A stretch of 64,000 nucleotides of DNA from Eledone cirrhosa (taxonomy: Eukaryota): assembly GCA_964016885.1 (NCBI GenBank), contig OZ024742.1, positions 239,196,001 to 239,260,000 on the forward strand, given 5' to 3'. The stretch's first letter is position 1; each line of letters starts with the position of its first letter. The notes under the pieces were generated by a model that saw only the letters and a program-made list of their open reading frames with translations, made no database searches and had not been told where the DNA came from. This document shows positions 2,344 to 55,869 of the stretch, in pieces. Both the position numbers and the translations under genes were made by a program.

Positions 2344-2862
2344 AATTTTCTTTGTCAGAAGTAAAATTAATTTTCAAAAGTGAAACTTTTAAGCTTAACA
2401 GTAACAGTTTCACTTTCGACCAGACCTAACTATCGATAATGTTTATTTGAGTAACTTAGTACAGCTACGGTGGATTTATACTAGAGTTATGTCCCTCATC
2501 TGATTTTGTCACTTAAAGTCACTCAACTCGATTTCTATGGCACCAATCTTTTCAATATTGACAAATTTTGATTCAGCTTATCGAGTTCTATCTACTGAGA
2601 TAGGTAGCATGAAATTATATTCGAAATTTAAAAAGTTATGATGAGTCAAAGTCAATGAGGTGCCTTATCCCCCACTACTTGACCACACATATTTTAGCAT
2701 AACTCTTTTTCTACTGATCCAAATTTCAATTTCCTTATACCAAAATGTAGCCTGGGATGAGTCCATTCTAGTGCAAAAAACCTGATCAAATTTGGTTGAG
2801 AACTGAATTAGTGACAAGTCCTAGAAGTGGCTGTCGTTGGGAAAAAGTTGACCGTAAGAAAA

Positions 2863-10047: not shown

Positions 10048-11219
10048 TATCATCATCATCATCATCAGGTTTAGCGTCCGTGTTCCACGCTTGCATGGGT
10101 TTGGACGGGGGTTTTCCCACTTGAAGCAAGAGTGGTTGTCTTGCTCGCATAGGACTGTCTGGCGGGTTTTCTACAGTTGGATGCCCTTCCTAACACCAAC
10201 CACATTTACAGTGTGGGTCTGGGAGGTTTTTACCGTGTTGCCTACACGGCCACATTACAGCGTGGACTGTCTGGCGGGTTTTCTACAGCTGGATGCCCTT
10301 CCTAACACCAACCACATTTACAGTGTGGGGCTGGGAGGTTTTTACCGTGTTGCCTACACGGCCACATTTACAGCGTGGACTGTGTGTTTTTTGTCGTGAC
10401 ACCTACACGATCTCATTTGTTTCGGCCTGGATGTTGTGGGACCAACATAACTTTACATTGAAAGGGGCGGTGTGGGTGGGGTGGAGGTGGTGGGACGGGG
10501 GTGTGTTTTGATAGAGATGCCTACTGACTGTAGTAGGTTTTTACTTTGTATTTAGGTAAGGCGGGTCTTCTCTATTACTGAGTACCGCCAAAGGTCTCGG
10601 TCCAGTGACATTGTCTTGGAGAGGTGTAAGCGTGTGAGGTCGGAATTTATCAGCTCGTCCCATGTTTTTCTGGGTCTGCCTACTCCGTGGCTACCGTCTA
10701 TCTTTATTGCCCTGCACTTTGTTATACAGCTGTCGTCTTTCATGCGCATCACGTGACCGTACCAACGTAGCCTTCTCTCGAGTAAACAACATCTGATCCC
10801 TCTTATTTCTAATTTTTTCCTTAGTTCGTTTATGCTTTGCCGTTCACGTATATTACTATTGCACATCCAGCGGAGCATGCAAGCTTCGTTCCTCTCTAGT
10901 CTGCGTATATCCTCTGCACACAATGCCCAGGTCTCACTGCCATGCAGCATTGCTGTTCGTATGCAGGCATCGTATAACCTGCCTTTCATTTTTAGGGAGA
11001 ACCCTTTAGCGGCTAATAGTGGTATAAGCTCTCTGAACTTTTTCCATCCAGTTCTGACTCTAGCTACTGTACTTTCAGAGCACCCTCCCCCACTGCTGAT
11101 TTTGTCACCCAGGTAACGGAAGCTGTCCACTATTTCTATAGAACCCTCTGCGCAGTTGAAGGAGCTAGTATTTTGTGGGCACTTGCTGCTACTTATTGCA
11201 CCAGAGCACCGGCCACATG
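10048..11219 (-). mobile_element. RTE family A, young 5'-truncated copy
   Basis: ORF 10552-11358 C-terminal part is near-identical to 54694-55361; same 3' UTR with an approx. 112-bp duplication. Confidence 0.95.
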
Positions 11220-11253
<34 letters not shown>

Positions 11254-14500: not shown

Positions 14501-14707
14501 ATATATATATATTTATTTAGGTTAGTTGGTTCACTACTGGATAGAACTGGTCATTCTGTATGGTCAATCTCAATGTAATATTATGGAGAGTACTCAACGT
14601 AATGCAACTCACCCGTCTTCGTTTGTGTAGTTGGTGGTGCGAGTACGGAGTTAATTATTATAAAATAACAGGAGGCTGGACTGGTGTAAATCCTTGAAAG
14701 GTTTATT

Positions 14708-14765
14708 ATACTATGATCATTTCAATAACTGGCTTCAGTATGAATCCGGTGATATCATCAGGTAT
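14708..14765 (-). ncRNA. Hammerhead ribozyme (left-arm copy)
   Basis: atac CTGATGA tatcaccgg..ccagttatt GAAA tgatca TA gtat AATAAA. Confidence 0.7.
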
Positions 14766-14930
14766 TCGAAATATAACAAAGGAATATAACAGATAAAATC
14801 CATGGGGCTGATAATCAGAGACAAGAGGACGACCGACTATTTAGCAGCTTCTACCTCAGTCGGTCGTCCTCTTGTCTCTGATTATCAGCCCCATGGATTT
14901 TATCTGTTATATTCCTTGGTTATATTTCGA

Positions 14931-14988
14931 ATACCTGATGATATTACCGGATTCATACTGAAGCCGGTCATTGAAATGATCATAGTAT
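14931..14988 (+). ncRNA. Hammerhead ribozyme
   Basis: atac CTGATGA tattaccgg-attcatactgaag-ccggtcatt GAAA tgatca TA gtat AATAAA; palindromic helix III. Confidence 0.75.
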
Positions 14989-15061
14989 AATAAACCTTTC
15001 AAGGATTTACACCAGTCCAGCCTCCTGTTATTTTATAATATATATATATATATATCTATAT

Positions 15062-18785: not shown

Positions 18786-19252
18786 TTTTTACATAATAAG
18801 GTTATGTTTCCGAGGCAATCCAAGTTGAATCGACATGGGAACGGACGAAGTGTGTGCTTTTGGGTTCTTCACCCCTGTGAGTACCAATTCACCCCCACCG
18901 GTCTGCGCAGGCGCATGTCCGAAGGAATTTGACCATTAGCTACCGCAGATTTCAACGAAATTCGCTTAGTCAGTTCACCCTCTCAGCCAAACAACGACTC
19001 ATTTAGGCCTGTACTAGTTTACTGCTACCCGTCCCGTCTGTGGCAGTCAGCCGAAAGCCAGAGGGGATGGGAGAATGTTAGTTTTTACAGGTAACAATAC
19101 TACCTCTCACCAAGCATGGACAGTACTCTCCATCAACTCCCAAGAGAAAATATACTTAATTCTAGGAATCATGGTTTTACATTGGAAGTTATGAGTGAGA
19201 GTTGGAAATAAAAATTAAAATCCTAAATATATATATATATATTACATATATA

Positions 19253-22200
19253 TCATCATCATCATCATCATCATCGTTTAACGTCCATGTTCCACGCTTG
19301 CATGGGTTTGGATGGGTGTTTTCCCACTTGAGGCAAGGGTGGTTGTCTTGCTCGCATAGGACTGTCTGGCGGGTTTTCTACAGCTGGATGCCCTTCCTAA
19401 CACCAACCACATTTACAGTGTGGGACTGGGAGGTTTTTACCGTGTTGCCTACACGGCCACATTACAGCGTGGACTGTGTATTTTTTTGTCGTGACACCTA
19501 CACGATCTCATTTGTTTCGGCCTGGATGTTGTGGCACCAACATAACTTTACATTGAAAGGGGCGGTGTGGATGGGGTGGGGGTGGTGGGACGGGGGTGTA
19601 TTTTGTTAGAGATGCCTACAGACTGAATTAGGTTTTACTTTGTATTTAGGTAAGGCGGGTCTTCTCTATTACCGAGTACCGCCAAAGGTCTCGGTCCAGT
19701 GACACTGTCTTGGAGAGGTGTAAGTGTGTGAGGTCGGAATTTATCAGCTCGTCCCAGGTTTTTCTGGGTCTGCCTACTCCGTGGCTACCGTCTATCTTTA
19801 TTGCCCTGCACTTTGTTATACAGCTGTCGTCTTTCATGCGCATCACGTGTCCATACCAACGTAGCCTTCTCTCGAGTAAACAACATCTGATCCCTCTTAT
19901 TTCTAATTTTTTCCTTAGTTCGTTTATGCTTTGCCGTTCACGTATATTACTATTACACATCCAGCGGAACATGCAAGCTTCGTTCCTCTCTAGTCTGCGT
20001 ATATCCTCTGCACACAATGCCCAGGTCTCACTGCCATGCAACATTGCTGTTCGTATGCAGGCATCATACAACCTGCCTTTCATTTTTAGGGAGAACCCTT
20101 TAGCGGTTAATAGTGGTATAAGCTCTCTGAACTTTTTCCATCCAGTTCTGACTCTAGCTACTGTACTTTCAGAGCACCCTCCCCCACTGCTGATTTTGTC
20201 ACCCAGGTAACGGAAGCTGTCCACTATTTCTATAGAACCCTCTGCGCAATTGAAAGAGCTAGTATTTTGTGGGCACTTGCTGCTACTTATTGCACCAGAG
20301 CACCGGCCACATGTAAAATCTATGTTCTTAGTTAGCTTACCTATGATCCCACTACATCTTTTATGCATCCATACTTTGCATTTGGGACATAAAATGGAGT
20401 TTCTACCTACGCCTTTCCTACACACTGAGCATGGCCATTTCCCGGAAGGGACCGGCGCCTTATTTTCTTTCCTACAAACTAGAACTTTAGTCTTAGCCAG
20501 GTTAATTTTAAGGCCTTTTGATTCTAGGCCGTGCTTCCATGTTTGGAATTTCTTCTCTAGCTCGGCCATTGATTCAGCTATGAGCGTTAGATCATCTGCG
20601 TATAGGAGTTCCCATGGGCAGCCGGTCTTGAACTGTTATAGCCTGAAGGGCAATAATAAATAGTAGGGGGCTAAGAACAGAGCTCTGATGAACACCAACT
20701 TTTACGCTTAACTCTTCACTATATTCGTTGTTAATTCTAACCTTGCTGACTGTTTCTTTATACATGGCTTGTATAGCTCTCACAAGCCATTCATCAACAC
20801 CTAGTTTTCTAAGAGCCCACCAGATAATGGAACGGGGGACTCTGTCGAAGGCTTTCTCCAAGTCGACAAAAGCTAAGTAGAGGGGTTTACCTTTAGCTAG
20901 GTACTTCTCCTGTAGTTGACGTACAATGAAAAGAGCGTCTGTGGTACTTTTGTCTGACACAAACCCGAACTGCATTTCATCTAGATCGATTCTCTCTCTG
21001 ATTAGTTGCTCTATTACTTTTTCCGTGACCTTCATGACCTGGTCGATTAATTTAATGCCTCTATAGTTACTCCTATCTAGGGCGTCTCCTTTACCCTTGT
21101 AGCAGTTAATGATGATGCTGCTACGCCAGTCCTTCGGAACAACCCCATTCTGTATGACTTGGTTTACTATCCGGGTGACCATGGTGTGTCCCACCGTTCC
21201 AGAGGCTTTCACCATCTCAGCAACTATTTCCGAAGGCCCAGCCGCCTTACCCGTCTTCATATCTTTGATTGCCTTACTTATTATACTACATTCGACTAAC
21301 ACTGCTGGTCCCTCTCTTGGGTCGATGTGGGGTAGACTGTCTTTCTCCCATTTATTCTCCTCATTTAGTAGCCTTTCGTAGTGACACTTCCAAGCTACCT
21401 TCTTATCAGCGTCAGGGATGGCAAGTGTGCCATCATCATTAAGTACACACTTCTCCCTGACAATATCACGGTTTTCCTTGACACATTGCCTAGCAATCCT
21501 GAACACCTCACGTTTTTGGTCCTCGCGTTGTAGAACATGCTTGAACTTTCTTTCCTCTGCTTCCCTTCTTGCGAAGTACACTTGTCTCCTAGCTTCCCTC
21601 CTGGCCACTTAATAGTCTTCTCTACTTCCTCCATCCCGCCATACTTTCCAAGCCTGCTTTTTGGCCTTAATTGACTCCTCCACCTTACTCTCCTCCTTAA
21701 TTGACTCCTCCAAGTTACTCTCCTCCTTAATTGACTCCTCCAAGTTACTCTCCTCCTTAATTGACTCCTCCAAGTTACTCTCCTCCTTAATTGACTCCTC
21801 CAAGTTACTCTCCTCCTGCCTACAGGCCTCCTGCTCCAGCAACAGATTTCATCTGTCGCCTTCAGCAGGTTAGCTTTCAGGTATTCCCACTGTTCCTCTA
21901 TATTGTACGACTCTAATTGCTCTTCCTTACTGTCGAAAGCATCAAGTAATATGCTTTTAAATTTATTTCTGGCTGTGGGGTCCTTTAGCTTCCATATTTT
22001 TCTCCTGAGGATAGTCCTCTTCTGCTGTCGAGTACGTCTCGTCCTGACTATGAGGTTACTAATTATGAGTCTATGTTGGGAGGTGCATTCTTCATGGGGG
22101 AGGGATTTAGTGTTTACAACAGACACTCTGTCACGTCTTCTGGTAAGGATATAATCTACCTGGCTGGTATGTTCCCCTGATCTGTAGGTGATCAAGTGAT

Positions 22201-25202: not shown

Positions 25203-25230
25203 TATATATATTATATATATATATATATTT

Positions 25231-25530
25231 ATAAAGAAAAAAAGATAAAATCGAAAATGTAACTGGAGTCTTATTTTTTTAAAAATATATATATTTATTT
25301 GGTTCCTTTGCCGGTTTCGCAGTTCTTCTGCTTTTCAAAAGTAGAGTTGAGATGGAGGGTCTGTGGTTTTTCTCATATCTGATGTGAGAAAAACCACAGA
25401 CCCTCCATCTCAACTCTACTTGTGAAAAGCAGAAGAACTGCGAAACCGGCAAAGGAACCAAATAAATATATATATTTAAAAAAAAATAAGACTCCAGTTA
25501 CATTTTCGATTTCATCTTTTTTCCTTTATA
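25231..25530. repeat. Fold-back, about 145-bp arms, degenerate hammerhead
   Basis: Centre at about 25380. 25419-25454: ctt GTGAAAA gcag-aagaa-ctgc GAAA ccgg CA aag, then AATAAA. Confidence 0.9.
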
Positions 25531-25534
25531 CTTT

Positions 25535-28500
25535 CACTCGTGTAGGACACCTCGGTTATTTTTCATTTTGTAAAAAAACCTCACTTTCTAATATATATTT
25601 ATATATGGTCCATTCATCTATCTGTATCATTTCGCCCAGAATCCAATCTTTGCTTTTTCAATGCTATTCGATAATTCTATCGTATTTTTCAAAACAATCT
25701 TCTTGTATTTTTTTTAATTTCCCATAATTCTTCTCTTATTACTGTTATGTATGCTTGTTAAATTATGTCCAAAATTCGAGGATTTTATTTAAACCTTAAC
25801 CTTCTCTGCTCCCTCCTATTCTTCACCCCCCCCCCCATATCATGCTGGTTCTCTCTCAATCCCTTCCTCTCTCTCCAAATATAAAATAAATCTTTTGCAA
25901 GTACGAAACTCAGAATTCGTCAACCCCTTTTCAGGCTAGGCTGCTCGCTCGGTGAAATGTAATGTACTAATTGTTATTTCTTCACTCTTCTGTCCATTTT
26001 TTATTCCCTGGTCCATTCATCTATCTGTATCATTTAGCCCAGAATCCAATCTTTGCTTTTTCAATGCTATTCGATAATTCTATCGTATTTTTCAAAACAA
26101 TCTTCTTGTAATTTTTTTAAATTCCCATAATTCTTCTCTTATTACTGTTATGTATGCTTGTTAAATTATGCCCAAAATTCGAGGATTTTATTTGAATCTT
26201 TTCGCTAACTACCCCATATCTCTCCCACCCGCCCCCACTCACCACCATTATTACGTGGGCCAATCATAAGTCAGCAGCCTATGCTATCACTTAAGTTTAG
26301 ACCTGGTTGCCTTTCGATATGATGGATGGACTACGGAATTCTGGAGAGTTTGAAAAGAAAAAATCTGGACACTCGGTGACAATGCCAAAGATAAAGACAA
26401 ATTCACCTCATGCTGCCGGATGCAAGGACTCCTCTTTATTTCGGCTGCATAACCCCCCCCCCCCCCCCCCCCCCTCCCCCGCGGCCCACCGTTCCCACCC
26501 TCCAAATGCAATCCAAAACTTCAGAGTTGGTACCATGAATGTAGGCACCTTAAAAGGTCGCTCTAACGAGGTTGTAGAAATGCTTGAACGTAAGGAGGTT
26601 GATGTTTGCTGTATTCAAGAGACCAGGTGGAGGGGTGGGTCTGCTAGATTCATTGTGGGTAAAGAACGATGCTATAAGCTTTTCTGGGTGGGAAATGACA
26701 ATGGGCTGGGTGGAGTAGGAATCATGTTAGCAGAAAAATGGGTGGATAAGATAATAGACGTAAATAGAGTGAACGACAGAATAATTAAAATAAGACTTGT
26801 CCTCAATAGAACTACTGTGACAATAATATCTGCATATGCACCACAATCCGGACTGCCTGGCATTATAAAAGACAGATTCTATGAGACGTTAATGCTCACT
26901 ACCTCCCAAATAACTGACAGTGACTACATAGTTATCGCTGGCGACCTAAATGGTCACGTTGGACGACATTGTGACGGTATGATGGAATCCATGGAGGCTA
27001 TGGGTTTGGTACTAGAAATGAGGAAGGCTCTTGAATCCTGGAATTCTGTGACGCAAATAACCTAACTATCTGTAACACTAACTTCAAAAAACGAGACAAT
27101 CACTTGATCACCTATAGATCAGAGGAACACACCAGCCAGGTAGATTATATCCTTACCAGAAGACGTGACAGAGTGTCTGTTTTAAACACTAAATCCCTCA
27201 CCCATGAAGAATGCACCTATCAACATAGACTCATAATTAGCAACCTCATAGTCAGGGCGAGACGTACTCGACAACAGAAGAGGACTATCCTCAGGAGAAA
27301 AATATGGAAGCTAAAGGATCCCACAGCCAGTAATAAATTTAAAAGCATATTATTTGATGCTTTTGATAGTAAGGAAGAGCAATTAGAGTCGTACAATATA
27401 GAGGAACAGTGGGAATACCTGAAAGCTAACCTGCTGAAGGTGACAGATGAAATCTGTGGCTGGAGCAGACCTATAGGAAGGAGGAGAGTAACTTGGTGGT
27501 GGAACAGTAAGGTGGAGGGGGTCAATCAAGGCCAAAAAGCAGGCTTGGAAAGCATGGCGGGATGGGGGGAGAAAACTATCAAGTGGCCAGGAGGGAAGCT
27601 AGGAGACAAGTGTACTTCGCAAGAAGGGAAGCAGAGGAAAGAAAGTTCAAGCATGTTCTACAACGCGAGGACCAAAAACGTGAGGTGTTCAGGATTGCTA
27701 GGCAATGTGTCAAGGAAAACCGTGATATTGTCGGGGAGAAGTGTGGACTTAATGATGATGGTGTACTTGCCATCACTGACGCTGATAAGAAGGTAGCGTG
27801 GAAGTGTCACTACGAAAGGCTACTAAATGAGCAGAATAATTGGGAGAAAGACAGTCTCCCCCACATCGATCCAATAGAGGGACCAGCAGTGCAAGTTGAA
27901 GGTAGTATAATAAGTAAGGCGATCAAAGACATGAAGACAGGCAAGGCGGCTGGGCCTTCGGAAATAGTTGCTGAAATGCTGAAAGCATCTGGAACAGTGG
28001 GACACACTATGGTCACCCGGATAGTAAACCAAGTCATACAGAATAGGGTCGTTCCGAAGGACTGGCGTAGCAGCATCATCATTAACTGCTACAAGGGTAA
28101 AGGAGATGTCCTAGATAGGGGAAACTATAGAGGCATTAAATTAATTGACCAGGTCATGAAGGTCACAGAAAAAGTTATAATGCTACTAATCAGAGAACAA
28201 ATTGATCTAGACGAAATGCAGTTCGGGTTTGTATCAGGTAAAAGTACAACAGACGCTCTTTTCATTGTATGACAACTACAGGAGAAGTACCTAGCTAAAA
28301 GTAAACCCCTATACTTAGCTTTTGTTGACTTGGAGAAAGCCTTTGACAGAGTACCCCGCTCCATTATCTGGTGGGCGCTTAGAAAACAAGCCATGTATAA
28401 AGAAACAGTCAGCAAGGTTAGAATTAACAACAAATATAGTGAAGAGTTTAGCATAAAAGTTGTTCATCAGGGCTCCGTCCTTAGCCCCTACTATTTATTA

Positions 28501-29892
28501 TTGCCCTTCAGGCTATAACAGAAGAGTTCAAGACCGGCTGCCCCTGAGAACTCCTATATGCAGATGATCTAACACTCAGCTGAATCAATGGCTGAACTAG
28601 AGAAGAAATTCCAAACATGGAAGCATGGCCTAGAATCAAAAGGCCTTAAAATTAACCTGTCTAAGACTAAAGTTCTAGTTTGTAGGAAGGAAAATAGGGC
28701 ACTGGTCCCATCTGGGAAATGGCCATGCTCAGTGTGTAGGAAAGGAGTAGGCAGAAACTCCATTTTATGTGTCAAATGCAAAGTATGGGTACATAAAAGA
28801 TGTAGTGGGATCACAGGTAAGCTAACTAAGAATATAGATTTTATATGTGGCCGTTGCTCAGGTGCAATAAGTAGCAGCAAGTGCCCACAGAATACTAGCT
28901 CATTCCATTGCACAGATGGTTCTATAGAAATAGTGGACACCTTCCGTGACCTGGGTGACAAAATCAGCAGTAGTGGAGGGTGCTCTGAAAGTACAGTAGC
29001 TAGAGTCAGAACGGGATGGATAAAGTTCAGAGAGCTTATACCACTATTGGCCACTAAAGGGTTCTCTCTATAAATGAAAGGCAGGCTGTATGATGCCTGC
29101 ATACGAACAGCAATGTTACATGGTAGTGAGACTTGGGCATTGTGTGCAGAGGATATACGCAGACTGGAGAGGAACGAAGCTTGCATGCTCCGTTGGATGT
29201 GTAATAGTAATATACGTGAACGGCAAAGCATAAATGAACTAAGGGAGAAATTAAGAATAAGAGGAATCAGATGTTGTTTACTCGAGAGAAGACTACGTTG
29301 GTATGGTCACGTGATGCGCATGAAAGACGACAGCTGTATAAAAAAGTGCAGGGCGATAAAAATAGACGGTAGCCACGGAGTAGGTAGACCCAGAAAAACC
29401 TGGGACGACTTGATAAATTCCGATCTCACACACTTACACCTCTCCAAGACAATGTCACTGGACCAAGATCTTTGGCGCTACACAGTAATACAGAAGACCT
29501 GCCTTGCCTAAGTACAAAGCGAAACCTACAGTCAGTAGGCACCTCTAACAAAAATACACCCCCGTCCCACTACCCCCACCCCACCCACACCACCGCTTTC
29601 GATGTAAAGTTATGTTGGTATCACAACATCCAGTCCGAAATAAATGAGGCCGTGTAGGTGTCAAGACAAAAAAAACACACAACCACGCTGTAATGTGGCC
29701 ATGTAGGTAACACGGTAAAAACCTCCCAGTCCACACTGTAAACGTGGTTGGTGTTAGGAAGGGCATCCAGCCGTAGAAAACCCGCCAGACAGTCCTATAC
29801 GAGCAAGACAACCAATCTTGCCTCAAGTGGGAAAATTCCCGTCCAAACCCATGCAAGCGTGGAAGATGGACGTTAAACGAGGATGATGATGA
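25535..29892 (+). mobile_element. RTE family A, full length, degenerate
   Basis: ORFs 26307-27065, 27104-27796, 27562-28272, 28588-29073, 29074-29511; 3' UTR; (GAT)n tail. Confidence 0.95.
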
Positions 29893-30000
29893 TATATATT
29901 TATATATTACATATATATATATTATAACGGAGCAAAGGACTTGCGTATAATCCTGTAATTAAATGAGCTCAAAAGAAAAAGTTTTCCTGGGCACTTTAAA

Positions 30001-30240: not shown

Positions 30241-30495
30241 ATATTACATATATATATATATATATTACATATACAATTAAGTTAAAAATGTACATCCACA
30301 TATGTATACTGAAATACTAGTATGCATATGAATACACACACGTATACATATGTAGATGTACCGAGTTTTTCACTGGTCACTTTACTGTGAGTGTCCAGCT
30401 ATTCTGTATGTAAACACACAGACAAACCGGTTTTTAGAGTCATACTGGTTTTTGAGGAAACACCTTTCCTCTATTCTCCAGAAAGCCAGACAAGG

Positions 30496-30540
30496 AATAT
30501 TGAACTAGTTTCGATGTTGTTACATCTCATCAGCAATATT
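30496..30540 (-). ncRNA. Hammerhead ribozyme
   Basis: aatattg CTGATGA gatg-taacaa-catc GAAA ctag TT caatatt. Confidence 0.9.
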
Positions 30541-30918
30541 TACCTATCTTCCGGCCTCTCTAGAGAATCGTAAAAGCACATATCGTTATATGCTTTTTCT
30601 ATGAAAATTAGTAGTGGGCAGACTAATTTGCATAGAGCGTGAGTACGTACCGGTTCAACGGAGACGATAAAAACAAATAACGAAACGAAATTAAATTTCG
30701 TTTCGTTTGTAACTCACTTTTGTATAACTGACGCTTAAACAATTAAGTTAAAAATGTACATCCACATATGTATACTGAAATACTAGTATGCATATGAATA
30801 CACACACGTATACATATGTAGATGTATGCAAATTAGTCTGCCCACTACTAATTTTCATAGAAAAAGCATATAACGATATGTGCTTTTACGATTCTCTAGA
30901 GAGGCCGGAAGATAGGTA

Positions 30919-30963
30919 AATATTGCTGATGAGATGTAACAACATCGAAACTAGTTCAATATT
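30919..30963 (+). ncRNA. Hammerhead ribozyme
   Basis: Identical motif; 7-bp helix I, 4-bp helix II, palindromic ACTAGT helix III. Confidence 0.9.
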
Positions 30964-31260
30964 CCTTGTCTGGCTTTCTGGAGAATAGAAGAAAGGTGTT
31001 TCCTCAAAAACCAGTATGACTCTAAAAACCGGTTTGTCTGTGTGTTTACATACAGAATAGCTGGACACTCACAGTAAAGTGACCAGTGAAAAACTCGGTA
31101 CATCTACATATGTATACGTGTGTGTATTCATATGCATACTAGTATTTCAGTATACATATGTGGATGTACATTTTTAACTTAATTGTTTAAGCGTCAGTCA
31201 TACAAAAGTGAGTTACAAACGAAACGAAATTTAATTTCGTTTCGTTATTTGTTTTTATAT

Positions 31261-31299
<39 letters not shown>

Positions 31300-31440
31300 C
31301 ATATATATATATATATATTACATATATATATATATATATATATATTACATATATATTACATAACGAAGGAAATGTGGTAAGGAACCAGGTGGACCATAAC
31401 GCACCAAAGTACTCAATACTTAGGGTAGTAGAGTGGGTAA

Positions 31441-31556
31441 TAGGAATGAATAGGACCCCGACGGCTGAGCTCAAGCCGTTTCGACGGCTAATTCTGGGTC
31501 CAGAATTAGCCGTCGAAACGGCTTGAGCTCAGCCGTCGGGGTCCTACTCGTTCCTA
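31441..31556. repeat. GC-rich near-perfect hairpin carrying the 3' half of a hammerhead
   Basis: About 57-bp arms centred at 31498; gtc GAAA cggct-tgagctc-agccg TC gggg. Confidence 0.9.
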
Positions 31557-31657
31557 TATATTACATATATATATATATATATGATAATAAGGGCGCTGCG
31601 GAGTTGCATATATATATATATATATATATATATGATAATAAGGGCGCTGCGGAGTTG

Positions 31658-31759
<102 letters not shown>

Positions 31760-31760
31760 C

Positions 31761-32376
31761 ATCATCATCATCATCATCATCGTTTAACGTCCGTCTTCCA
31801 CGCTTGCATGGGTTTGGATGGGAGTTTTCCCACTTGAGGCAAGAGTGATTGTCTTCCTCGCGTAGGACTATCTGGCGGGTTTTCTACAGCTGGATGCCCT
31901 TCCTAACACCAAGCACATTTACAGTGTGGGGCTGGGAGGTTTTTACCGTGTTGCCTACACGGCCACATTACAGCGTGGACTGTGTGTTTTTTGTCATGAC
32001 ACCTACACGATCTCATTTGTTTCGGCCTGGATGTTGTGGCACCAACATAACTTTACATTGAAAGGGGCGGTGTGGATGGGGTGGGGGTAGTGGGACGGGG
32101 GTGTATTTTGTTAGAGATGCCTACTGGCTGTAGTAGGTTTTACTTTGTATTTAGGAAAGGCGGGTCTTCTCTATTACTGAGTACTGCCAAAGGTCTCGGT
32201 CCAGTGACATTGTCTTGGAGAGGTGTAAGTGTGTGAGGTCGGAATTTATCAGCTCGTCCCAGGTTTTTCTGGGTCTGCCTACTCCGTGGCTACCGTCTAT
32301 CTTTATTGCCCTGCACTTTGTTATACAGCTGTCGTCTTTCATGCGCATCACGTGACCATACCAACGTAGCCTTCTC
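31761..32376 (-). mobile_element. RTE family A 3' fragment
   Basis: ORF 32151-32351 plus 3' UTR and tail. Confidence 0.92.
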
Positions 32377-32429
32377 TCTCTCTCTCTCTATATATATATA
32401 TACATATGTATATATATATATTTATCCAT

Positions 32430-38790: not shown

Positions 38791-39297
38791 TTTTACTGAG
38801 GACCTGTTTGGTTTTTAGAGAGAATATTAGGAGGGAGGGGTGAAGTTGTTAGAAGAATAGTTGAGGGAGTGGTTTTTTGATAGCAGTGAGAATTTTTGGT
38901 AGCAGTGAGTAATTAGATTCCCATCTGTTGTTTTGACATTTTTATAGAATATATTATTGGTTATTTTTCTAAATCTATAGAAGGATTAGAGATAGTATAG
39001 ATATGCATGGTTGGTTTTGTGTTTGCACTTAATTAACATTCAGACTTAAATTTTTCTTTCAAATGTACATATCCTTTCGCCCACGCATTCACACACAAAC
39101 ATATATGCACACCTCTACAAAATACATATACTCACATACACATACTTACATGCTCATACTTACATACATATACACATGCACATATATATATATACATATA
39201 TACATGTACATACGCATTCATGTGTATACATTTTCATATTCAACTTATCTTTATATACACACGTATAGACACACATATATACATACATACTCCAGTC

Positions 39298-39339
<42 letters not shown>

Positions 39340-39342
<3 letters not shown>

Positions 39343-39662
39343 TAAGGCAACCACGTCACCTTTTTGTTCAACACTGACACAGGAACGATGTACTAGTTTC
39401 AAGCTTGTTAGCTATCATCAGCACCGTTTACCCATCTGCCAGATAGTTGAACGTTCGAAAGTATATACTTTCCTTATGAAAATTAACGGCTGAGCAGCCT
39501 AATTTGCATATTGAGTGAGTTAAATCGGTCAGGCATACCGAAAACGATAAGTTGAAAAAAATGAAAACGAAATTTCATTTCTCACTCTTAGTATGGCACT
39601 TACTTAAATGTAAGTATGTATGTATACGTACATACATATATGTATACAGACGTACAGTAGCA

Positions 39663-40373: not shown

Positions 40374-40780
40374 TTTATATCTATGAAAACTTAGGAAAGA
40401 CAACATGGAAAGAAATGCTAAAGCTAAAAGTGTGCATTTGCAAATATAGACTATAGGGCAAGAGAGCGGTAATATGTCAAACCCTTTTAGCTTTAGCATA
40501 TCTTTCCTAAGTTTTCATAGATATAAATTCCCTGTTCTTCTGAGTTTTGGCTTGTTCTGGCTGTTAATACTTCTTGTCTCTTTACTTGCTCTGATGAGTC
40601 CCTATTAATGGGACGAAACACTGTCAGCTAATAAAGACTTTTGATGTATTGAAGGCTTCTTTGTTTATTCTTTATAATTTTACGGGTCTGTTGAATTACA
40701 TTGAGCTATACCTTTACTGTCATTTCTCTAATACGACGAGTGTGTTTAACTCAAACGCACTCAAGTATTTTAATCTTATA
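40373..40780 (+). mobile_element. Hammerhead unit with a 5' partial inversion
   Basis: atttatatctatgaaaacttaggaaaga and atgctaaagctaaaag recur inverted at 40484-40528. Confidence 0.7.
40588..40628 (+). ncRNA. Hammerhead ribozyme
   Basis: gct CTGATGA gtccc-tattaat-gggac GAAA cactg TC agc t AATAAA. Confidence 0.9.
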
Positions 40781-42240: not shown

Positions 42241-42918
42241 AAGACCTACGTAGATTAGAGAGAAACGAAGCCTGCATGCTCCGATGGATGTGTAACAGTA
42301 ATATACGTGAACGACAAAGCATAAATGAATTGAGAGAGAGACTGAGCATAAGAGGAATCAAATGCTGCGTGCAGGAGAGGCGGTTACGCTGGTATGGACA
42401 TGTGATGCGTATGAAGGATGACAGCTGCATAAAAAGGTGCAGAGCACTAGAAGTTGATGGAAACCGCGGAGTGGGGAGACCCAAGATGACTTGGGATGAG
42501 GTGATAAAAGCCGACCTTACCCAACTACACCTCTCAAAGTCAATGACACACGACCGTGACTTCTGGCGTCACGCAGTAATACAGGGTACCCGACCTCCCA
42601 TGGGTACATGCTGAAGCATATAAACAATATGCCCCCCCCCCCCCCACCGCAAGGTGGTCGTGGAGGTGCCACGGCAAAAAAGCACCCAGCCCACACTGTA
42701 AAGTGGACGTGTAGGCGCCACGAAAAAGCACCCAGCACTCACTGTAAATGAGGTTGGTGTTAGGAAGGGCATCCAGCTGTAGAAATCAAGCCAGATCAGT
42801 TCCTGTATGAGCAAGGCATGGTCAGCCGACCAGACACTGCCCACAACAGGACAACCCGTCTAACCCATGCTAGCGTGGAAGAACGGACGTAAAACGGTGA
42901 TGATGATGATGATGATGA
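42241..42918 (+). mobile_element. RTE (family A-related) 3' fragment with UTR
   Basis: ORF 42276-42614 [18 protein letters not shown]; (GAT)n tail. Confidence 0.9.
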
Positions 42919-42944
42919 TATATATTTATGTATATATATATATT

Positions 42945-42977
<33 letters not shown>

Positions 42978-42996
42978 TTATGTATATATATATATT

Positions 42997-43029
<33 letters not shown>

Positions 43030-43169
43030 TTATGTATATATATATATTTATGTATATATACATATATATATATATATTTATGTATATATACATATATATA
43101 TATATTTATGTATATATACATATATATATATATTTATGTATATATGTATATATACATATATTTATGTAT

Positions 43170-43523
43170 TTCATCATTTCATTTTTCATCATTTCATTTT
43201 ACGTCCGCTTTTCCCTGCTTGCAAGGGTAGGACGGGAACTGATTCTGGCTTGATTTCTACAGCTGGATGCCCTTCCTAACACCAACCTCATTTACAGTGA
43301 GTGCTGGGTGCTTTTTTGCCGTGTCACCTCCACGACCACTTTGCAGTGGAATGATATGGACCCCAGTCCCTATCATCTCATTTCTACAGCTGAGTAAACT
43401 GGAGCAATGTGAAAAATAAAGTATCTTGCTCAAGGAAACAACACATCACCCGGTCTGAAAATTGAACTCACAACCTTTTGATTGCAAGGCCAATGCTCTA
43501 ACCACTAAGCCATGTGCCTCCAC
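43170..43523 (-). mobile_element. tRNA-headed SINE
   Basis: Same family as 40798-41140. Confidence 0.88.
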
Positions 43524-44597: not shown

Positions 44598-44752
<155 letters not shown>

Positions 44753-44775
44753 GTATATATATATATATATATATT

Positions 44776-44818
<43 letters not shown>

Positions 44819-44825
44819 TTATTAA

Positions 44826-46640
44826 AATAACAGATTAAAGTTTAAGCAAAGAATCGCTGCTATCATCCTTAACGGGATCTTCTGAAACTAACAAAGTCAA
44901 TCTGTGAACGCAGATGTGAATATTTCAAAAAACGTTGCAACCGGAGGAAGACAGGAAGATGATACTTTGGTTCGTGGAATCGTTCCCTGGCAAAGAACGG
45001 GAAAAAACGAATATAATACGCCATTATTTGGAGCGGTGAAAAACAATTACATGCAAACACAAAACCACGTTTATGGTATAAAAGAAGTCGTAGACTAATA
45101 TTCTATTAGGTGGTTCATAGAGACATCCACTGGCAATGAACGGAAAAAACGAAGATAATACGTCATATGTGGAGCGTGGAGAACAATTGCACCCAAAGAT
45201 AAAACCACGTAAATGGTATAACTGAAGTCGTAGACTAAAATTCTAAGTAGGAAACCGAATGATTCTTGGCTTCAGAGTTAAGAATAAAGTAAATAAAATA
45301 CAGAGGTAATTGAAATTAAATAAATACATACACGCATCCATATACGTACATACACAAGCATACGCGAAAACAATCGCCATAGGTATACAAATACACGCAC
45401 GTACCCCCCCCCCCCCCCCCGCATGCACATACAGAACCAACGCAACACCTGTACCCGCACGCATACGAATGTATACACCAAATACACATAAAAATATATA
45501 TATATATATATGTGTGTGTGTGCGTGTATACATATAATTAAATAAACATATAAATAAATACGTATATAACAAGCGCACACACATACCTACATGTAAATAC
45601 ACATTTGTTCGGAGACGTACGTCAACCAAAACACGCACCCTACATACGTACGAAACCGCATACTCAAACAGACGCAAAACTCACGTATACATATAACCAA
45701 AAGCATATGTACTAGAATATATAATATATACTCCATAACATATACAATCAAATATACGTACGAGAAAGTATACGTACCTTCACAAAACATACAGGTAATA
45801 TATACTTACCTATACAAGTAAGTAATGGTATAAACATAAAATATACTTAGCTACCACATCAAGATGTAAAATATCCGCGTATAGTTTGTACTATCCATTA
45901 GGGTATAATGCGGGGCTGTAATACAGGAAAGTTTTGTGCAATTTGTTTACAAGCCGAAATTGCCTCAGATTTTTTGTTTAAGATGTGGTCTTTGGCGTAG
46001 AGTATTTCCAGGGCCTCAGCAGCGCAGAGATCACATGGTCTTTCACTTCTGTTATACGATCTAGCTCTAGCTAGGATCTCCCAGTGTAACTTATATTGGG
46101 TGTGGTTGTCTTTTAGACTCCAGATATAAGCTGAAAGTGACGTCATATTCCTTCTTAGAAGGTTAAGAAAAGAATGGGTATGCATGTAAAGACGCTGCTT
46201 GAATCTGTTGGCGGTTAACCCGATGTAGGCCCTATGGGACGTGGGTGTTTCAACCTTACATTTGTAGACAATGTTACTAGAGAGGCATTTCCCAGATAGG
46301 GGGCAGTCACCTTGGTTCCTAAAATTACAGTTAGTACTAGCTACAGGGTTGCACGTGTTCCTACGGCTAGGTAATTTAGCTAAATTTGAAGCAGTGATGT
46401 TATGTGCAAGGTTAGGAGGCGTAGAGTAAGAAATTTTAATGGTATTTCTATTAAAAATTTTATTATATTTATGTGCTGGGGGGAAATACTTCATAATAAG
46501 GGAGAGAAAGATCTTAGCTAATGGTGTGGCCACCTCCATATTATATGGTGGGTTATACTATATAATGCGTCGGGATCTATTTTTCCTAGATCTATGCTCA
46601 TACTCGGTATATGCTGCCTTATCGACAAATCCACTCTGAG
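44826..46640 (-). mobile_element. Penelope-like element, GIY-YIG end plus 3' region (left arm)
   Basis: ORF 45898-46539: KISYSTPPNL..CPLSGKC..IVY..YIGLT..FKQRL..H..SF..CDLC..LNKKSE. Confidence 0.92.
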
Positions 46641-46659
46641 CAAGAGCTTCATTGTAATA

Positions 46660-48331
46660 AATTGTCTTACTCTACGACTCCTAACCTTGCACATAACATC
46701 ACAGCTTCAAATTTAGCTAAATTACCTAGCCGTAGGAACATATGCAACCCTGTAGCTAGTACTAACTGTAATTGTAGGAATCGGATTGACTGCCCCCTAT
46801 CCGGGAAATGCCTCTCTAGTAACATTGTCTACAAATGTAAGGTTTAAACACCCATGTCCCGTAGGGCCTACATAAGGTTAACCACCAATAGATTCAAGCA
46901 GCATCTTTACATGCATACCCATTCTTTTCTTAACCCTTTAATAAGGAATATGACGTCACTTTCAGCTTATATCTGGAGTTTAAAAGACAACCACACTCAA
47001 TATAGGTTACACTGGGAGATCCTAGCTAAGGCTAGATCGTATAACGGAAATAAAAGACCATGTGACCTCTGCGTCGCTGAAGCCCTGGAAATACTCTACG
47101 CCAATGACCACATCTTAAACAAAAAATCTGAGGCAATTTCGGCTTGTAAACATAAATTGCACAAAACTTTCCTGTATTACAGCCCCACATTATACCCTAA
47201 TGGATAGTACAAGCTATACGTGGATAATTTATGTCTTGATGTGGTAGCTAAGTATATTTTATGTTTATACCATTACTTATTTGTATAGGTAAGTATATAT
47301 TACCTGTATGTTTTGTGAAGGTAGGTATACTTTCTCGTACGTGTATTTGCTTGTATTTGTTATAGGCATATATATTATATTATATATACTGGTACATGGG
47401 TTATGGTTATGTGTATACGTGAGTTTTGCGTTTGTGTGTGTATGTGGGTTTGCACGTATGTAGGGTGTGTGTATATGTGTACTTTGTGTTTTGGTTGACG
47501 TTCATTTAGCGAACATGTTTTTACATGTAGGTATGTGTGTGCACGCGTTATATACGTATTTATGCATGTATATTTATATACGTTTATATAATTATATGTA
47601 TACACGCACGCACACACACACACACACACACACAGACATACACACACACATATTTTTTTTATATATGTTTTATGTGTATTTGGTGTATACGTTCGTATGT
47701 GTGCGGGTACAGAAGTTATGTGGGTTTTTGATTGTGTGCGTGTGTTTTTGTGTACGTGCCTGTATTTGCATACCCATGGCGGATGTTTTCGCGTATGCAT
47801 GTGTATGTACGTATATGGATGCGTGCATGTATATATTTAATTATTGTTGATTTCAATAACCTCTGTAATTTATTTACATTTTTCTTAACTCTGAAGCCGA
47901 GAATCATTCGGTTTCCTAAATAGAATTTTAGTCTACGACTTTAGTTATACCATAAACGTGGTTTTGTCTTTGCGTGTAATTGTTCTCATCGCTCCACATA
48001 ATGATGTATAATCTTCGTTTTTCCATTCTTTGCCAGGGAACATCTCCACGAACCACCTAATAGAATATTAGTCTACGATTTCATTTATACCATAAACGTG
48101 GTTTTGTCTTTGCTTGTAATTGTTCTCACCGCTCCAAATAATGGCGTATTATCTTCGTTTTTTTCCATTCTTTGTCTCCACGAACCAAAGTATCGTCTTC
48201 CTGTCTTCCTTCGGTTGCAACATTTTTCGAAATATTTACTTCTGCGTTCACAGATTGATTTTTTTTAGTTTCACAAGATCCCGTTAAAGGTGAAAGCAGC
48301 GATTCTTTGCTTAAACTTTAATCTGTTATTA
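46660..48331 (+). mobile_element. Penelope-like element, inverted copy (right arm)
   Basis: ORFs 46611-46847 and 46854-47207; the 3' region mirrors the left arm out to aatctgttatt. Confidence 0.92.
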
Positions 48332-48419
48332 AATATTTGCTCTACGGTTCTTATATATTTGATATATATTTATCCTTATCGAGCCCTCTTTGGATTTTAG
48401 TCTTCAAATTTATTATTAT

Positions 48420-48470
<51 letters not shown>

Positions 48471-48480
48471 ATATATATAT

Positions 48481-50135
48481 ATCATCTTCATCATCATCAT
48501 CATTTGACGTCCGCTTTGCCCTGCAAAGGGTGGGATGGGTCCTATTCAGCACAGCATCTCTCCACTTCTCATGGTCCTTCGTCATCTCCACCGTGAGCTT
48601 CAGTGATCTGAGGTCTGCTCTCACCACCTCCACCCATGATTTTCGTGGTCTACCTCTACCACGTCTTCCTTCAACTGGCATTTCCTAGCACTTCTTCACC
48701 CATCAGTCATCCGCCATGCGCATCACATGTCCATACCACCTCAGTCTCCTCTCTCGCACACTACAATCTATCCCTCTCAGACACAGTTTCTCTCTCAACA
48801 CATCCATGCTTAGTCGTTCTTGCACATTTACATTGCACATCCTACGGAGCATGTTTGCCTCATTTCTCTCCAGCCGTCGCATCTCCTCTGCAGTTGCTGC
48901 CCATCTCTCACTACCATGCAACATCGCGCTCCTCACACAGGCATCATCTAACCGGCCTTTCGTACACAGGGAGAAACCCTTCATCGTCAGCAGAGGGAGC
49001 AGCTCCCTAAATTTCTTCCAACCCGCCCTTATTCTAGATACTATGGCCTCGGAACACCCCCTCCCATGCTAATCTGATCTCCTAGGTACCGGAAGCTATC
49101 AACCACTTCTATAGCACCCACCTGCATTTGAAAAATGTGTCTATCAATGCGATTTCTACTGTTTAATTTCCCTTCACATCTACTGCATACATATTTCTCC
49201 CTACCTGTTAGTTTGCCTGCTATCCCACTACATCTCTTGTGTACCCAAGATCTGCATTGTGTGCATTTTATAGAATTTATACCAGTTCCTTTTCTGCATA
49301 TCGAACATGACCATTTCCCTGACGGAATCAGGGTTTTGTCCTCTTTTCTACTCAACACTTTTGTCTTAGGTATCTTCACTCTCAGTCCTCTTGCTTCCAA
49401 CTGCTGTTTCCATAGCCAGAATTTATTCTCTAGCTCCTCTACTGATTCTGCTATAAGAACCAGATCGTCACCATAGAGAAGTTCTCATGGACAGCGAGTC
49501 TTAAACTCCTCTGTTATGACTTGGAGGACTATAATGAACAAGAGCGGGCTGAGTACCGAACCTTGATGTACTCCTACTTGCATCTGGAATTCCTCACTAA
49601 ACTCAATTCCTACCCTCACTTTACTGACAGCACCTCTGTACAAAGTTTGCACTGTCCTCACAATCCATTCCTCAACACCTCGTTTCCTTAGGGACCACCA
49701 GATGACAGATTGGGGTACCCTATCAAAGGCCTTCTCTAGGTCAACAAAAGCTAAGTATAGTGGCTTATTCTTCGCTAAGAACCTCTTTTGTAATTGTCTC
49801 ACCAAGAAGAGGGCATCTGTTGTACTTTTCCCAGGTTCAAAACCAAACTGCATCTCATCTAGTTTGACCGTTTCTCTAATTAGTTGTGCTAATATGCTTT
49901 CTGCCACTTTCATAACCTGATCCATCAGTTTTATACCCCTATAATTGCTCCTCTCCAGAGCATCCCCTTTACCTTTGTAGCAATTTATGAGAATACTGCT
50001 GCAACAGTCTTTAGGTATGACTCCACCATATATAGCTTGATTGACTATGCGTGCAATCAGTTTAGTACCTACTTCTGATGCCTTCAGTATCTCAGCAACT
50101 ATTGGTCCACCGCCTTCATTTCCTTAATTGCCTCT
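48481..50135 (-). mobile_element. RTE family B, 5'-truncated
   Basis: ORFs 49485-49925, 49041-49400, 48703-48984. Confidence 0.93.
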
Positions 50136-53020: not shown

Positions 53021-53138
53021 TGATAGATAGATATAGATATATATTTTATATATGTATTATATATATATATTTTATATATGAATTATATATATATATTTTA
53101 TATATTTATTATATATATATATATATATATACATTTCA

Positions 53139-55869
53139 AATAAATTTCAAAGCAAATTACTTGACGCTTTCGACAGTAAGGAAGAGCAATTAGAGTCGTA
53201 TAATATAGAGGAACAGTGGGAATTCCTGAGAGCAAACCTGCTGACGGCGGCAGACGAAGTCTGTGGCTGGAGCAGGCCTGTAGGTAGGAGGAGAGTAACA
53301 TGGTGGTGGAACAGTAAGGTGGAGGAGTCAATTAAGGCCAAAAAGCAGGCTTGGAAAGTATGGCGGGATGGGGGAAGTAGAGAAGACTATCAAGTGGCCA
53401 GGAGGGAAGCTAGGAGACAAGTGTACTTCGCAAGAAGGGAAGCAGAGGAAAGAAAGTTCAAGCATGTTCTACAACGTGAGGACCAAAAACGTGAGGTGTT
53501 CAGGATTGCCAGGCAATGTGTCAAGGAAAACCGTGATATTGTCGGGGAGAAGTGTGTACTTAACGATGATGGCATACTTGCCATCACCGACGCTGATAAG
53601 AAGGTAGCTTGGAAGTGTCACTACGAAAGGCTTCTAAATGAGGAGAACAAATGGGAGAAAGACAGTCTCCCCCAGATCGATCCAATAGAGGGACCAGCAG
53701 TGTTAGTTGAAGGTAGTATAATAAGTAAGGCAATCAAAGATATGAAGACGGGTAAGGCGGCTGGGCCTTCGGAAATAGTTGCTGAGATGCTGAAGGCATC
53801 TGGTTCGGTGGGACACACCATGGTCACCCGGATAGTTAACCAAGTCGTACAGAATGGGGTTGTTCCGAAGGAATGGCGTAGCAGCATCATCGTTAACTGC
53901 TATAAGGGAAAAGGAGATGCCCTAGATAGGAGTAACTATAGAGGCATTAAATTAATCGACCAGGTCATGAAGGTCACGGAAAAAGTAATAGCGCAACTAA
54001 TCAGAGAGAGAATTGATCTAGATGAAACGCAGTTCGGGTTTGTGTCAGGCAAAAGTACCACAGACGCTCTTTTCATTGTACGACAACTACAGGAGAAGTA
54101 CCTAGCTAAAAGTAAACCCCTATACTTAGCTTTTATCGACTTGGAGAAAGCCTTCGACAGAGTCCCCCGTTCCATTATCTGGTGGTCTCTTAGAAAACTA
54201 GGTGTTGACGAATGGCTTGTGAGAGCTATACAAGCCATGTATAAAGAAACAGTCAGTAAGGTTAGAATTAACAACGAATATAGTGAAGAGTTTAGCGTAA
54301 AAGTTGGTGTCCATCAGGGCTCTGTACTTAGCCCCCTACTATTTATTATTGCCCTTCAGGCTATAACAGAGGAGTTCAAGACCGGCTGCCCATGGGAACT
54401 CCTATACGCAGATGATCTAACGCTCATAGCTGAATCAATGACCGAACTAGAGAAGAAATTCCAAACGTGGAAGCACGGCCTAGAATCAAAAGGCCTTAAA
54501 ATTAACCTGGCTAAGACTAAAGTTCTAGTTTGTAGGAAAGAAAATAAGGCGGCGGTCCCATCGGGGAAATGGCCATGCTCAGTGTGTAGGAAAGGCGTAG
54601 GTAGAAACTCCATTTTATGTCCCAAATGCAAAGTATGGGTGCATAAAAGATGTAGTGGGATCACAGGTAAGCTAACTAAGAACATAGATTTTACATGTGG
54701 CCGGTGCTCTGGTGCAATAAGTAGCAGCAAGTGCCCACAAAATACTAGCTCCTTCAACTGCGCAGAGGGTTCTATAGAAATAGTGGACAGCTTCCGTTAT
54801 CTGGGTGACAAAATCAGCAGTGGGGGAGGGTGCTCTGAAAGTACAGTAGCTAGAGTCAGAACTGGATGGAAAAAGTTCAGAGAGCTTATACCACTACTAG
54901 CCGCTAGAGGGTTCTCCCTAAAAATGAAAGGCAGGTTATACGATGCCTGCATACGAACAGCAATGCTGCATGGCAGTGAGACCTGGGCATTGTGTGCAGA
55001 GGATATACGCAGACTAGAGAGGAACGAAGCTTGCATGCTCCGCTGGATGTGCAATAGTAATATACGTGAACGGCAAAGCATAAACGAACTAAGGAAAAAA
55101 TTAGAAATAAGAGGGATCAGATGTTGTTTACTCGAGAGAAGGCTACGTTGGTACGGTCACGTGATGCGCATGAAAGACGACAGCTGTATAACAAAGTGCA
55201 GGGCAATAAAGATAGACGGTAGCCACGGAGTAGGCAGACCCAGAAAAACATGGGACGAGCTGATAAATTCCGACCTCACACGCTTACACCTCTCCAAGAC
55301 AATGTCACTGGACCGAGACCTTTGGCGGTACTCAGTAATAGAGAAGACCCGCCTTACCTAAATACAAAGTAAAAACCTACTACAGTCAGTAGGCACCTCT
55401 ATCAAAACACACCCCCGTCCCACCACCTCCACCCCACCCACACCGCCCCTTTCAATGTAAAGTTATGTTGGTCCCACAACATCCAGGCCGAAACAAATGA
55501 GATCGTGTAGGTGTCACGACAAAAAACATACAGTCCACGCTGTAAATGTGGCCGTGTAGGCAACACGGTAAAAACCTCCCAGCCCCACACTGTAAATGTG
55601 GTTGGTGTTAGGAAGGGCATCCAGCTGTAGAAAACCCGCCAGACAGTCCACGCTGTAATGTGGCCGTGTAGGCAACACGGTAAAAACCTCCCAGCCCCAC
55701 ACTGTAAATGTGGTTGGTGTTAGGAAGGGCATCCAACTGTAGAAAACCCGCCAGACAGTCCTATGCGAGCAAGACAACCACTCTTGCCTCAAGTGGGAAA
55801 ACCCCCGTCCAAACCCATGCAAGCGTGGAACACGGACGCTAAACCTGATGATGATGATGATGATGATGA
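53139..55869 (+). mobile_element. RTE family A, 5'-truncated young copy with an uninterrupted RT ORF
   Basis: The frame is open from the truncation point to 55361; 3' UTR with a duplication; (GAT)n tail. Confidence 0.97.
53319..55361 (+). CDS. RTE reverse transcriptase (partial ORF, endonuclease missing) with a PHD-like finger
   Basis: [50 protein letters not shown]. Confidence 0.9.
   Translation: MEESIKAKKQAWKVWRDGGSREDYQVARREARRQVYFARREAEERKFKHVLQREDQKREVFRIARQCVKENRDIVGEKCVLNDDGILAITDADKKVAWKCHYERLLNEENKWEKDSLPQIDPIEGPAVLVEGSIISKAIKDMKTGKAAGPSEIVAEMLKASGSVGHTMVTRIVNQVVQNGVVPKEWRSSIIVNCYKGKGDALDRSNYRGIKLIDQVMKVTEKVIAQLIRERIDLDETQFGFVSGKSTTDALFIVRQLQEKYLAKSKPLYLAFIDLEKAFDRVPRSIIWWSLRKLGVDEWLVRAIQAMYKETVSKVRINNEYSEEFSVKVGVHQGSVLSPLLFIIALQAITEEFKTGCPWELLYADDLTLIAESMTELEKKFQTWKHGLESKGLKINLAKTKVLVCRKENKAAVPSGKWPCSVCRKGVGRNSILCPKCKVWVHKRCSGITGKLTKNIDFTCGRCSGAISSSKCPQNTSSFNCAEGSIEIVDSFRYLGDKISSGGGCSESTVARVRTGWKKFRELIPLLAARGFSLKMKGRLYDACIRTAMLHGSETWALCAEDIRRLERNEACMLRWMCNSNIRERQSINELRKKLEIRGIRCCLLERRLRWYGHVMRMKDDSCITKCRAIKIDGSHGVGRPRKTWDELINSDLTRLHLSKTMSLDRDLWRYSVIEKTRLT

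Follow-up and report, generated by a model that had tools for sequence, protein, structure and literature searches.

The question raised by this locus is how a short repeat that encodes no protein and carries a hammerhead ribozyme came to be inserted in the genome of Eledone cirrhosa as a partial tandem fused to an inverted copy of itself, and whether the inserted copy is a source or a product of that movement. The window referred to throughout is the whole stretch of DNA that was analysed, 64,000 nucleotides of contig OZ024742.1 (positions 239,196,001 to 239,260,000; assembly GCA_964016885.1), and u positions number the ribozyme-sense unit, which is the reverse complement of window 30273-30738. 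The features of the locus are as follows.

30273..30826, minus strand: untailed arm, 554 nt, one complete unit at 30273-30738 followed by 88 nt of another at 30739-30826
30496..30540, minus strand: hammerhead identical to that of the other arm, predicted cut between 30503 and 30502
30626..30633, minus strand: second octamer-like motif
30825..30826, no strand: inversion junction, a 2-nt TA overlap at which the truncated 5' ends are joined, u379 to u105
30825..31258, plus strand: tailed arm, 434 nt, u105-466 (30825-31186) plus the tail
30826..30833, plus strand: octamer-like motif, u106-113
30919..30963, plus strand: type I hammerhead with a 7-bp stem I, core, 5-bp stem II and 2-bp stem III
31187..31258, plus strand: tail, 72 nt, u1-72, between the two fixed 3' ends of the family
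31256..31356, no strand: (TA)n microsatellite to the right of the insertion, whose left end borders a similar TA run

An earlier reading of this DNA from its letters alone had described a unit whose start is repeated after 466 bp, a strand switch at a TA microhomology, nearly identical arms and the lack of a credible ORF, and on each of these points it proved accurate. Positions 30273-30360 recur at 30739-30826, a spacing of 466; inverted pairing joins 30273-30634 with 30825-31186 and 30667-30826 with 31099-31258, the strands changing over within the 2-nt overlap; and across the roughly 520 bases compared the arms differ at two sites only, 30469/30990 and 30726/31199. In the first arm it is the minus strand that carries the ribozyme, which places the truncated 5' ends of both arms at the point where they meet; the 3' end of the untailed arm (u466) abuts (TA)n. 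The tail contains a 29-nt near-perfect palindrome (31218-31246), and no target-site duplication could be resolved inside the flanking (TA)n. The unit has 466 nt and a GC content of 36%; its arms hold no ORF of 100 aa, and the longest stop-free frames in a natural tandem trimer reach 57 aa in the sense and 60 aa in the antisense direction. Octamer motifs play a role in promoters, and the motif at u106-113, which we take to be an octamer and which is conserved in a sister family, may serve as part of one.

Both arms match the Rfam model Hammerhead_HH9, at 30480-30551 on the minus strand and 30908-30979 on the plus strand (36.5 bits, E 1.4e-5, below the gathering score of 52), and the plus-strand ribozyme is predicted to cut between 30956 and 30957. 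The two perfect hammerheads on opposite strands of the sequence-only reading stand in so far as there is one on each strand with a complete catalytic core, but they are less than perfect in that stem III has only 2 bp, with a palindromic loop of 2 nt, and in that the triplet at the cleavage site is GUU in place of the GUC of older subfamilies. GUU is the weaker cleavage site of the two. Of 287 segments sampled, 176 have U and 111 have C at position 17. Stem II carries a two-sided base-pair swap between subfamilies, and the pairing of stem I is kept through several changes in the sister family, a non-coding repeat of some 450 bp which aligns colinearly with the unit from end to end and forms the same inverted tailed insertions; as far as sequence comparison can tell, the compensatory changes in both stems show selection on the ribozyme fold. 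Elsewhere in the window, hammerhead-like cores of other families with an intact-looking stem II lie at 40591(+), 44170(+) and 7686(-), that of the 44170 type recurring in other loci, and an old copy of the sister family occupies about 39270-39560(-), with its core at 39421(-) and an altered cleavage site.

A stem III this short is described in the available part of PMC4209133 as cleaving poorly in a monomer and as being rescued by a tandem neighbour. Folding of a natural tandem dimer of the unit places the double hammerhead at -202.1 kcal/mol, within 1.8 of the best fold at -203.9, and the unit as a whole is highly structured (z = -10). From such models the hammerhead is predicted to need a tandem partner in order to work. 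When either transcript of the window element is folded it forms a hairpin in which 866-878 of 986 bases are paired and the ribozyme lies inside. With one sense hammerhead per strand and that hairpin burying it, the window copy is unlikely to release unit RNA, and by these folding predictions it is likely to be a dead-end product. We therefore do not share the view that, among candidates for activity, this locus ranks first; head-to-tail arrays elsewhere in the genome are better source candidates. The family was recently active, and the window copy is likely to be one of its products.

The unit is far from single-copy, and it is young, as the earlier reading had it. In its own genome of 3.0 Gb a pattern for the hammerhead core has 9,201 exact matches, a pattern for the tail end followed by TA 2,122 and one for the untailed end with TA 980, reversed-pattern controls for all three giving 0 matches; cores identical to that of this copy number 933, and near-full-length copies of the unit range from 89 to 100% identity. 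The forms that copies take were counted in a census of the first 90 listed of the 2,122 tail places, all of them exact tail matches from the first ~122 Mb of contig C1 and including one duplicate pair. Inverted copies whose far end lies at u463-466 make up 56 of these, with three more inverted copies ending elsewhere and five short inverted stubs; seven are joined directly to TA, twelve are of other kinds (two of them being further inversions whose junction holds an insert, and three being tiny stubs) and seven outran the stretch examined. None of the 59 inverted copies has a tail at both ends. The tailed arm is longer than one unit plus tail in 44 of the 83 cases resolved, and the inverted arm exceeds one unit in 33 of 59. 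Nearly all resolved inverted copies have TA at the untailed end; at the tailed end TA was partly selected, since the tail pattern required ATAT. Sampling in reverse, from 14 untailed ends chosen from the listing of untailed-end matches with TA, gave a tailed arm opposite in eight cases, a tail stub in three and neither in three, and a fifteenth, hand-picked insertion is untailed at both sides. Since most copies in the census are inverted with an untailed far end and a single tail, the window copy is of the form usual in its family and in no way special there, and the Penelope geometry that the earlier reading saw in it is shared by most of the copies sampled.

The 5' ends of copies, by contrast with their two fixed 3' ends, are scattered, and no peak was found at the predicted cut u236/237 (0 of 140 exactly there; 6 within 5 nt, 3.3 being expected). 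A fixed 5' end at u13 appeared at many of 30 loci, yet in only 1 of 83 resolved copies in the position-ordered sample; it was discarded, since the query itself carries the rare u13 variant (2/306 segments) and probably drew such copies into the first set. Copies range from monomers to head-to-tail arrays of tens of units. Long arrays of about 30 to more than 60 units lie at C1:81.85-81.88 Mb, C1:5.74-5.75 Mb and C602:40.8-58 kb, and these are the likeliest source loci; in one very long array the units are unevenly spaced, which suggests that arrays of such length expand as DNA as well. Short foreign inserts of 28-65 nt at the inversion or 5' junction of four copies (L163, L116, L124 and L126) suggest template switches during joining. 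Twenty public sequencing runs, from 16 studies and under 17 organism labels, contain 0.20-0.83 of the element's sampled words; no RNA run was among those listed as containing them, which says nothing either way on expression. The runs may come from close relatives, mixed samples or horizontal spread, and we regard it as rather improbable that the near-identical words under 17 labels reflect a family that has spread horizontally.

What served as template is best approached by comparing the arms. Across 50 inverted insertions with overlapping arms the mean difference between the arms is 0.85%, against a median of 5.9% to other insertions. In eleven insertions each arm covers a site at least twice, so that later single mutations can be filtered out, and there the arms show no fixed differences in 3,090 sites, against 1.5% to arms of other insertions less than 3% distant, of which only 6% were identical; a looser version of the test gave 21 in 12,088. 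There are 37 genotypes among 54 arms, private variants are common to both arms in 8 of the 50 insertions, and three of 38 multi-unit insertions show 0 variable sites across ~7-20 copies. Neither arm contains the other in 15 of 55 sampled inverted insertions, nor does it at this locus, with arms of 554 and 434 nt. Taken together, the shared genotype, the arms longer than one unit and the arms that do not nest favour priming from both strands of the target on one RNA that is likely circular. Two primings on one repeating template fit these sequence comparisons best, and a unit-length circle, put forward as template in the parts of PMC4209133 and PMC7229834 consulted, is the simplest such template, although two transcripts made from a single locus, or gene conversion at a later time, could also leave the arms identical.

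The enzyme is most readily sought among Penelope-like elements (PLEs), of which the genome encodes examples with RT and GIY-YIG ORFs and a CxxxxCxxC linker, of the Neptune/Nematis type; the nearest named relatives of one of them are bivalve proteins, at no more than 60% identity among the named matches. In one genomic PLE family the hammerhead shares the 2-bp stem III and U17, the targets are TA and an inverted copy is tailed at one end only; the pLTR of that family shows no detectable homology to the unit beyond a 14-15-nt match. Nor was an autonomous PLE with a unit-like pLTR found among the PLE 3' ends examined or at 45 loci with related hammerheads, in a search that scored 150 of the 10,595 GIY-YIG candidates and looked into 42 of the 150. 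Relaxed hammerhead patterns were also tried as a route to the parent and gave the sister non-coding family and scattered variants, none of them traceable to the pLTR of a PLE ORF. As no pLTR parent was found in these searches, we infer the PLE partner from behaviour and leave it unnamed. That behaviour is distinctive: a tail at one end, an inverted 5'-truncated copy, tandems and microsatellite targets are hallmarks of PLEs in the sections consulted of PMC8557442 and PMC3846280, and, in what was available of PMC11167929, the tail of a PLE is the stretch between two RT start sites and the PLE protein cuts and extends both target strands in vitro. The family has the inverted 5'-truncated arm, the single tail and the AT-rich or microsatellite target of a PLE-mobilised element, and we consider it good footprint evidence, as far as insertion signatures go, for mobilisation by PLEs.

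The reading that we think probable is that of a young, protein-free hammerhead repeat which borrows the RT-endonuclease of a Neptune/Nematis-type PLE, with a circular template and two-strand priming. Tandem arrays would be transcribed, adjacent hammerheads would pair into a double hammerhead by which unit-length RNA is cut out, and this RNA would probably be circularised. A PLE protein would then nick both strands of a (TA)n run, and two cDNAs would start on the same RNA, one at u72 and the other at u464-466, each running round the template for a variable distance, until the truncated cDNA ends join at a short microhomology to give a tailed arm and an inverted untailed arm. The copy number and the TA targets are observed, as are the two fixed ends, the single tail of each insertion, the multimeric arms with their common genotype, the cases in which the arms do not nest and genomic PLEs that behave alike; transcription, cleavage, the circle, the acting PLE and priming on two strands are the parts that the cycle supposes. 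That thousands of copies record a PLE RT priming both strands of (TA)n, at fixed sites 72 nt apart, on one circular retrozyme RNA that it then rolls around is a more specific proposition, for and against which we would wager equally.

Several other accounts of these insertions have been weighed. The same family and a PLE enzyme might use a linear read-through multimer, or two RNAs, as template with no circle, leaving the ribozyme mostly a passenger and the arrays homogenised and expanded as DNA. The long arrays of the genome could serve as such templates, young subfamilies carry the weaker GUU triplet, and hammerhead cleavage is dispensable for PLE insertion in vitro in the account available in PMC11167929. 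Against this, each insertion has its own founder genotype in all units of both arms, as the number of genotypes among the arms and the invariant multi-unit insertions attest, the compensatory changes speak for selection on the ribozyme fold, and a linear template predicts arms that do not overlap, whereas the tailed arm ends inside the 72-nt tail in just 5 of 55 cases; we hold this account to be unlikely. A fold-back, in which the first cDNA primes itself and the inverted arm arises with no second priming, is an idea published in PMC3846280, as far as the portion seen goes, and it would explain both the identical genotypes of the two arms and the short overlaps that are frequent at the junctions of sampled inversions. 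It requires nested arms, however, which this copy and the 15 sampled inversions lack, and both outer ends stand at fixed positions on TA, so that we give it very little credence.

No more favour is due to accounts that change the nature of the element. In the part of their work consulted, Cervera and de la Pena tied opposite-strand hammerhead pairs, 100-700 bp apart, to truncated PLEs, which speaks for taking the copies as truncated solo pLTRs of an autonomous PLE, and no independent non-coding element. Two of the 90 census copies are joined directly to inverted fragments of PLE ORFs (L099:2920-4121 and L100:7248-7436). These fragments belong to two different PLE families with 3' regions unlike the unit, units run head-to-tail into themselves in up to tens of copies, and the sister family is colinear along the whole unit, all of which makes the solo pLTR highly improbable. 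The two joins are possible hybrid insertions of two RNAs or later deletions, and as later deletion explains them equally well they are not counted as support. Movement by an abundant LINE, as a SINE-like element inverted by twin priming in the manner of L1, is suggested by the RT/endonuclease ORFs of LINEs that are plentiful in the window, also beside TA runs, but the element lacks a simple-repeat tail such as the (ATC)n of the neighbouring LINEs, and its two arms, which overlap in sequence, stop at fixed positions inside the unit that lie 72 nt from each other, in the way described for PLEs; we find it scarcely credible. There remains an assembly or amplification chimera. The same architecture is found in 56 of 90 copies, each arm carries a rare variant of its own (2/306 and 2/302 segments), and an unrelated copy on contig C4, 97% identical and of another genotype, has exactly this inversion junction, as an artefact would hardly do, so that the chance of a chimera is negligible. 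An autonomous PLE and a plant LTR retrozyme were rejected outright, the former because the element lacks an RT and GIY-YIG ORF and the latter because the motif here is type I, open in stem I, and not the type III hammerhead found in the LTRs of such retrozymes.

Within this field the probable PLE-borrowing repeat has close relatives. By the features of its sequence the family appears to work as a metazoan non-LTR retrozyme does: it has a type I hammerhead in the unit, it consists of short, low-GC, dispersed tandem repeats, and it has no ORF; the single sense hammerhead on each strand of the window copy falls short of what a retrozyme carries, and other copies of the family do not. Metazoan non-LTR retrozymes, as presented in the available text of PMC7229834 and 10.64898/2026.07.22.740005, likewise have no ORF and a type I hammerhead per unit, range from dispersed monomers to long tandem arrays, are low in GC, are highly self-paired and co-occur with PLEs. 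The unit is slightly longer than the 150-450 bp of Cervera and de la Pena 2020 (PMC7229834) and inside the 51-972 bp of 10.64898/2026.07.22.740005. It differs from metazoan retrozymes as there described in that most insertions are inverted, bear a PLE-type tail and lie in (TA)n. In what could be consulted of their bioRxiv preprint (10.64898/2026.07.22.740005), Li et al. regard retrozymes as non-autonomous derivatives of PLEs on the grounds of co-occurrence and pLTR similarity, and report that only 1 of 9 Xenopus retrozyme dimers cleaved; the link made there through pLTR similarity is made here through the insertion signature, no pLTR homologue having been found. EN+ PLEs of the Neptune/Nematis type (PMC8557442, PMC3846280) and Anolis PAc (PMC11167929) share, in the sections available, partial tandems, an inverted 5'-truncated copy, a one-end tail, microsatellite targets and a hammerhead with a short palindromic stem III, and differ in that the unit has no RT or GIY-YIG ORF and a tail of 72 nt, against 30-40 nt. 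Repeats of the newt and axolotl satellite-2 type (the relevant part of PMC7229834) also combine a short stem III with a weak monomer and an active dimer, in a different sequence, activity in the present case being no more than a prediction. The non-autonomous elements of the Chlamys MRC1 type, in the passages of PMC8557442 consulted, are partners of PLEs with pLTRs and head-to-tail insertions, but they resemble the autonomous family at the 3' end, and no such match was found for the unit. In the literature covered, with few subscription papers and no preprint supplements, we found no report of PLE-type tails, inversions or arm-genotype tests for retrozymes.

The window holds further insertions beside TA runs. 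The TA tract of the locus contains at 31360-31557 a second, unrelated small insertion of the same tail-plus-inversion shape, with 58-nt inverted arms (31440-31497 and 31500-31557) and about 80 nt extra on one side only, whose end sequence recurs beside L017, L044, L189 and L191. A large old inverted pair at 44673-46438 and 46658-48482, 84% identical, with 140-bp tandem repeats and TA-run borders, is possibly another inverted PLE-type insertion, and other near-perfect local inversions adjoin TA runs at 14656-15040, 25230-25530 and 42694-43348. A LINE at 53082-55361(+) encodes an RT with a C-terminal PHD finger; its relatives at 10049-11221, 19226-21728, 27332-29923 and 31723-32378 belong to a type whose copies are 90-99% identical and which has 112-bp repeats near the 3' end and (ATC)n tails adjoining TA runs. 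Helitron-like Rep/helicase fragments (Pfam Helitron_like_N, DUF6570) lie at 140-2373(-). Rfam miRNA matches in the window are TA-rich hairpins far below gathering scores and were set aside.

We conclude that this is a new retrozyme family of a known kind, and that the copy in the window is real, young and typical. How animal retrozymes move, and how the tails and inversions of PLEs form, are stated to be open in the portions consulted of 10.64898/2026.07.22.740005, PMC8557442 and PMC11167929. The family is short, young, non-coding and abundant, its two start sites are sharply defined, and the same genome encodes candidate enzymes in long open frames, so that a 466-nt circle, a (TA)n target and one protein would make a direct test. 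Elements of this kind are known; what is unusual here is how clearly the insertions bear the marks of a probable mode of movement. If the proposed priming of both (TA)n strands on a circular RNA is true, these insertions would provide direct footprint evidence for the mobilisation of animal retrozymes by PLEs, and a single model would account for the tails, tandems and inversions of PLEs together.
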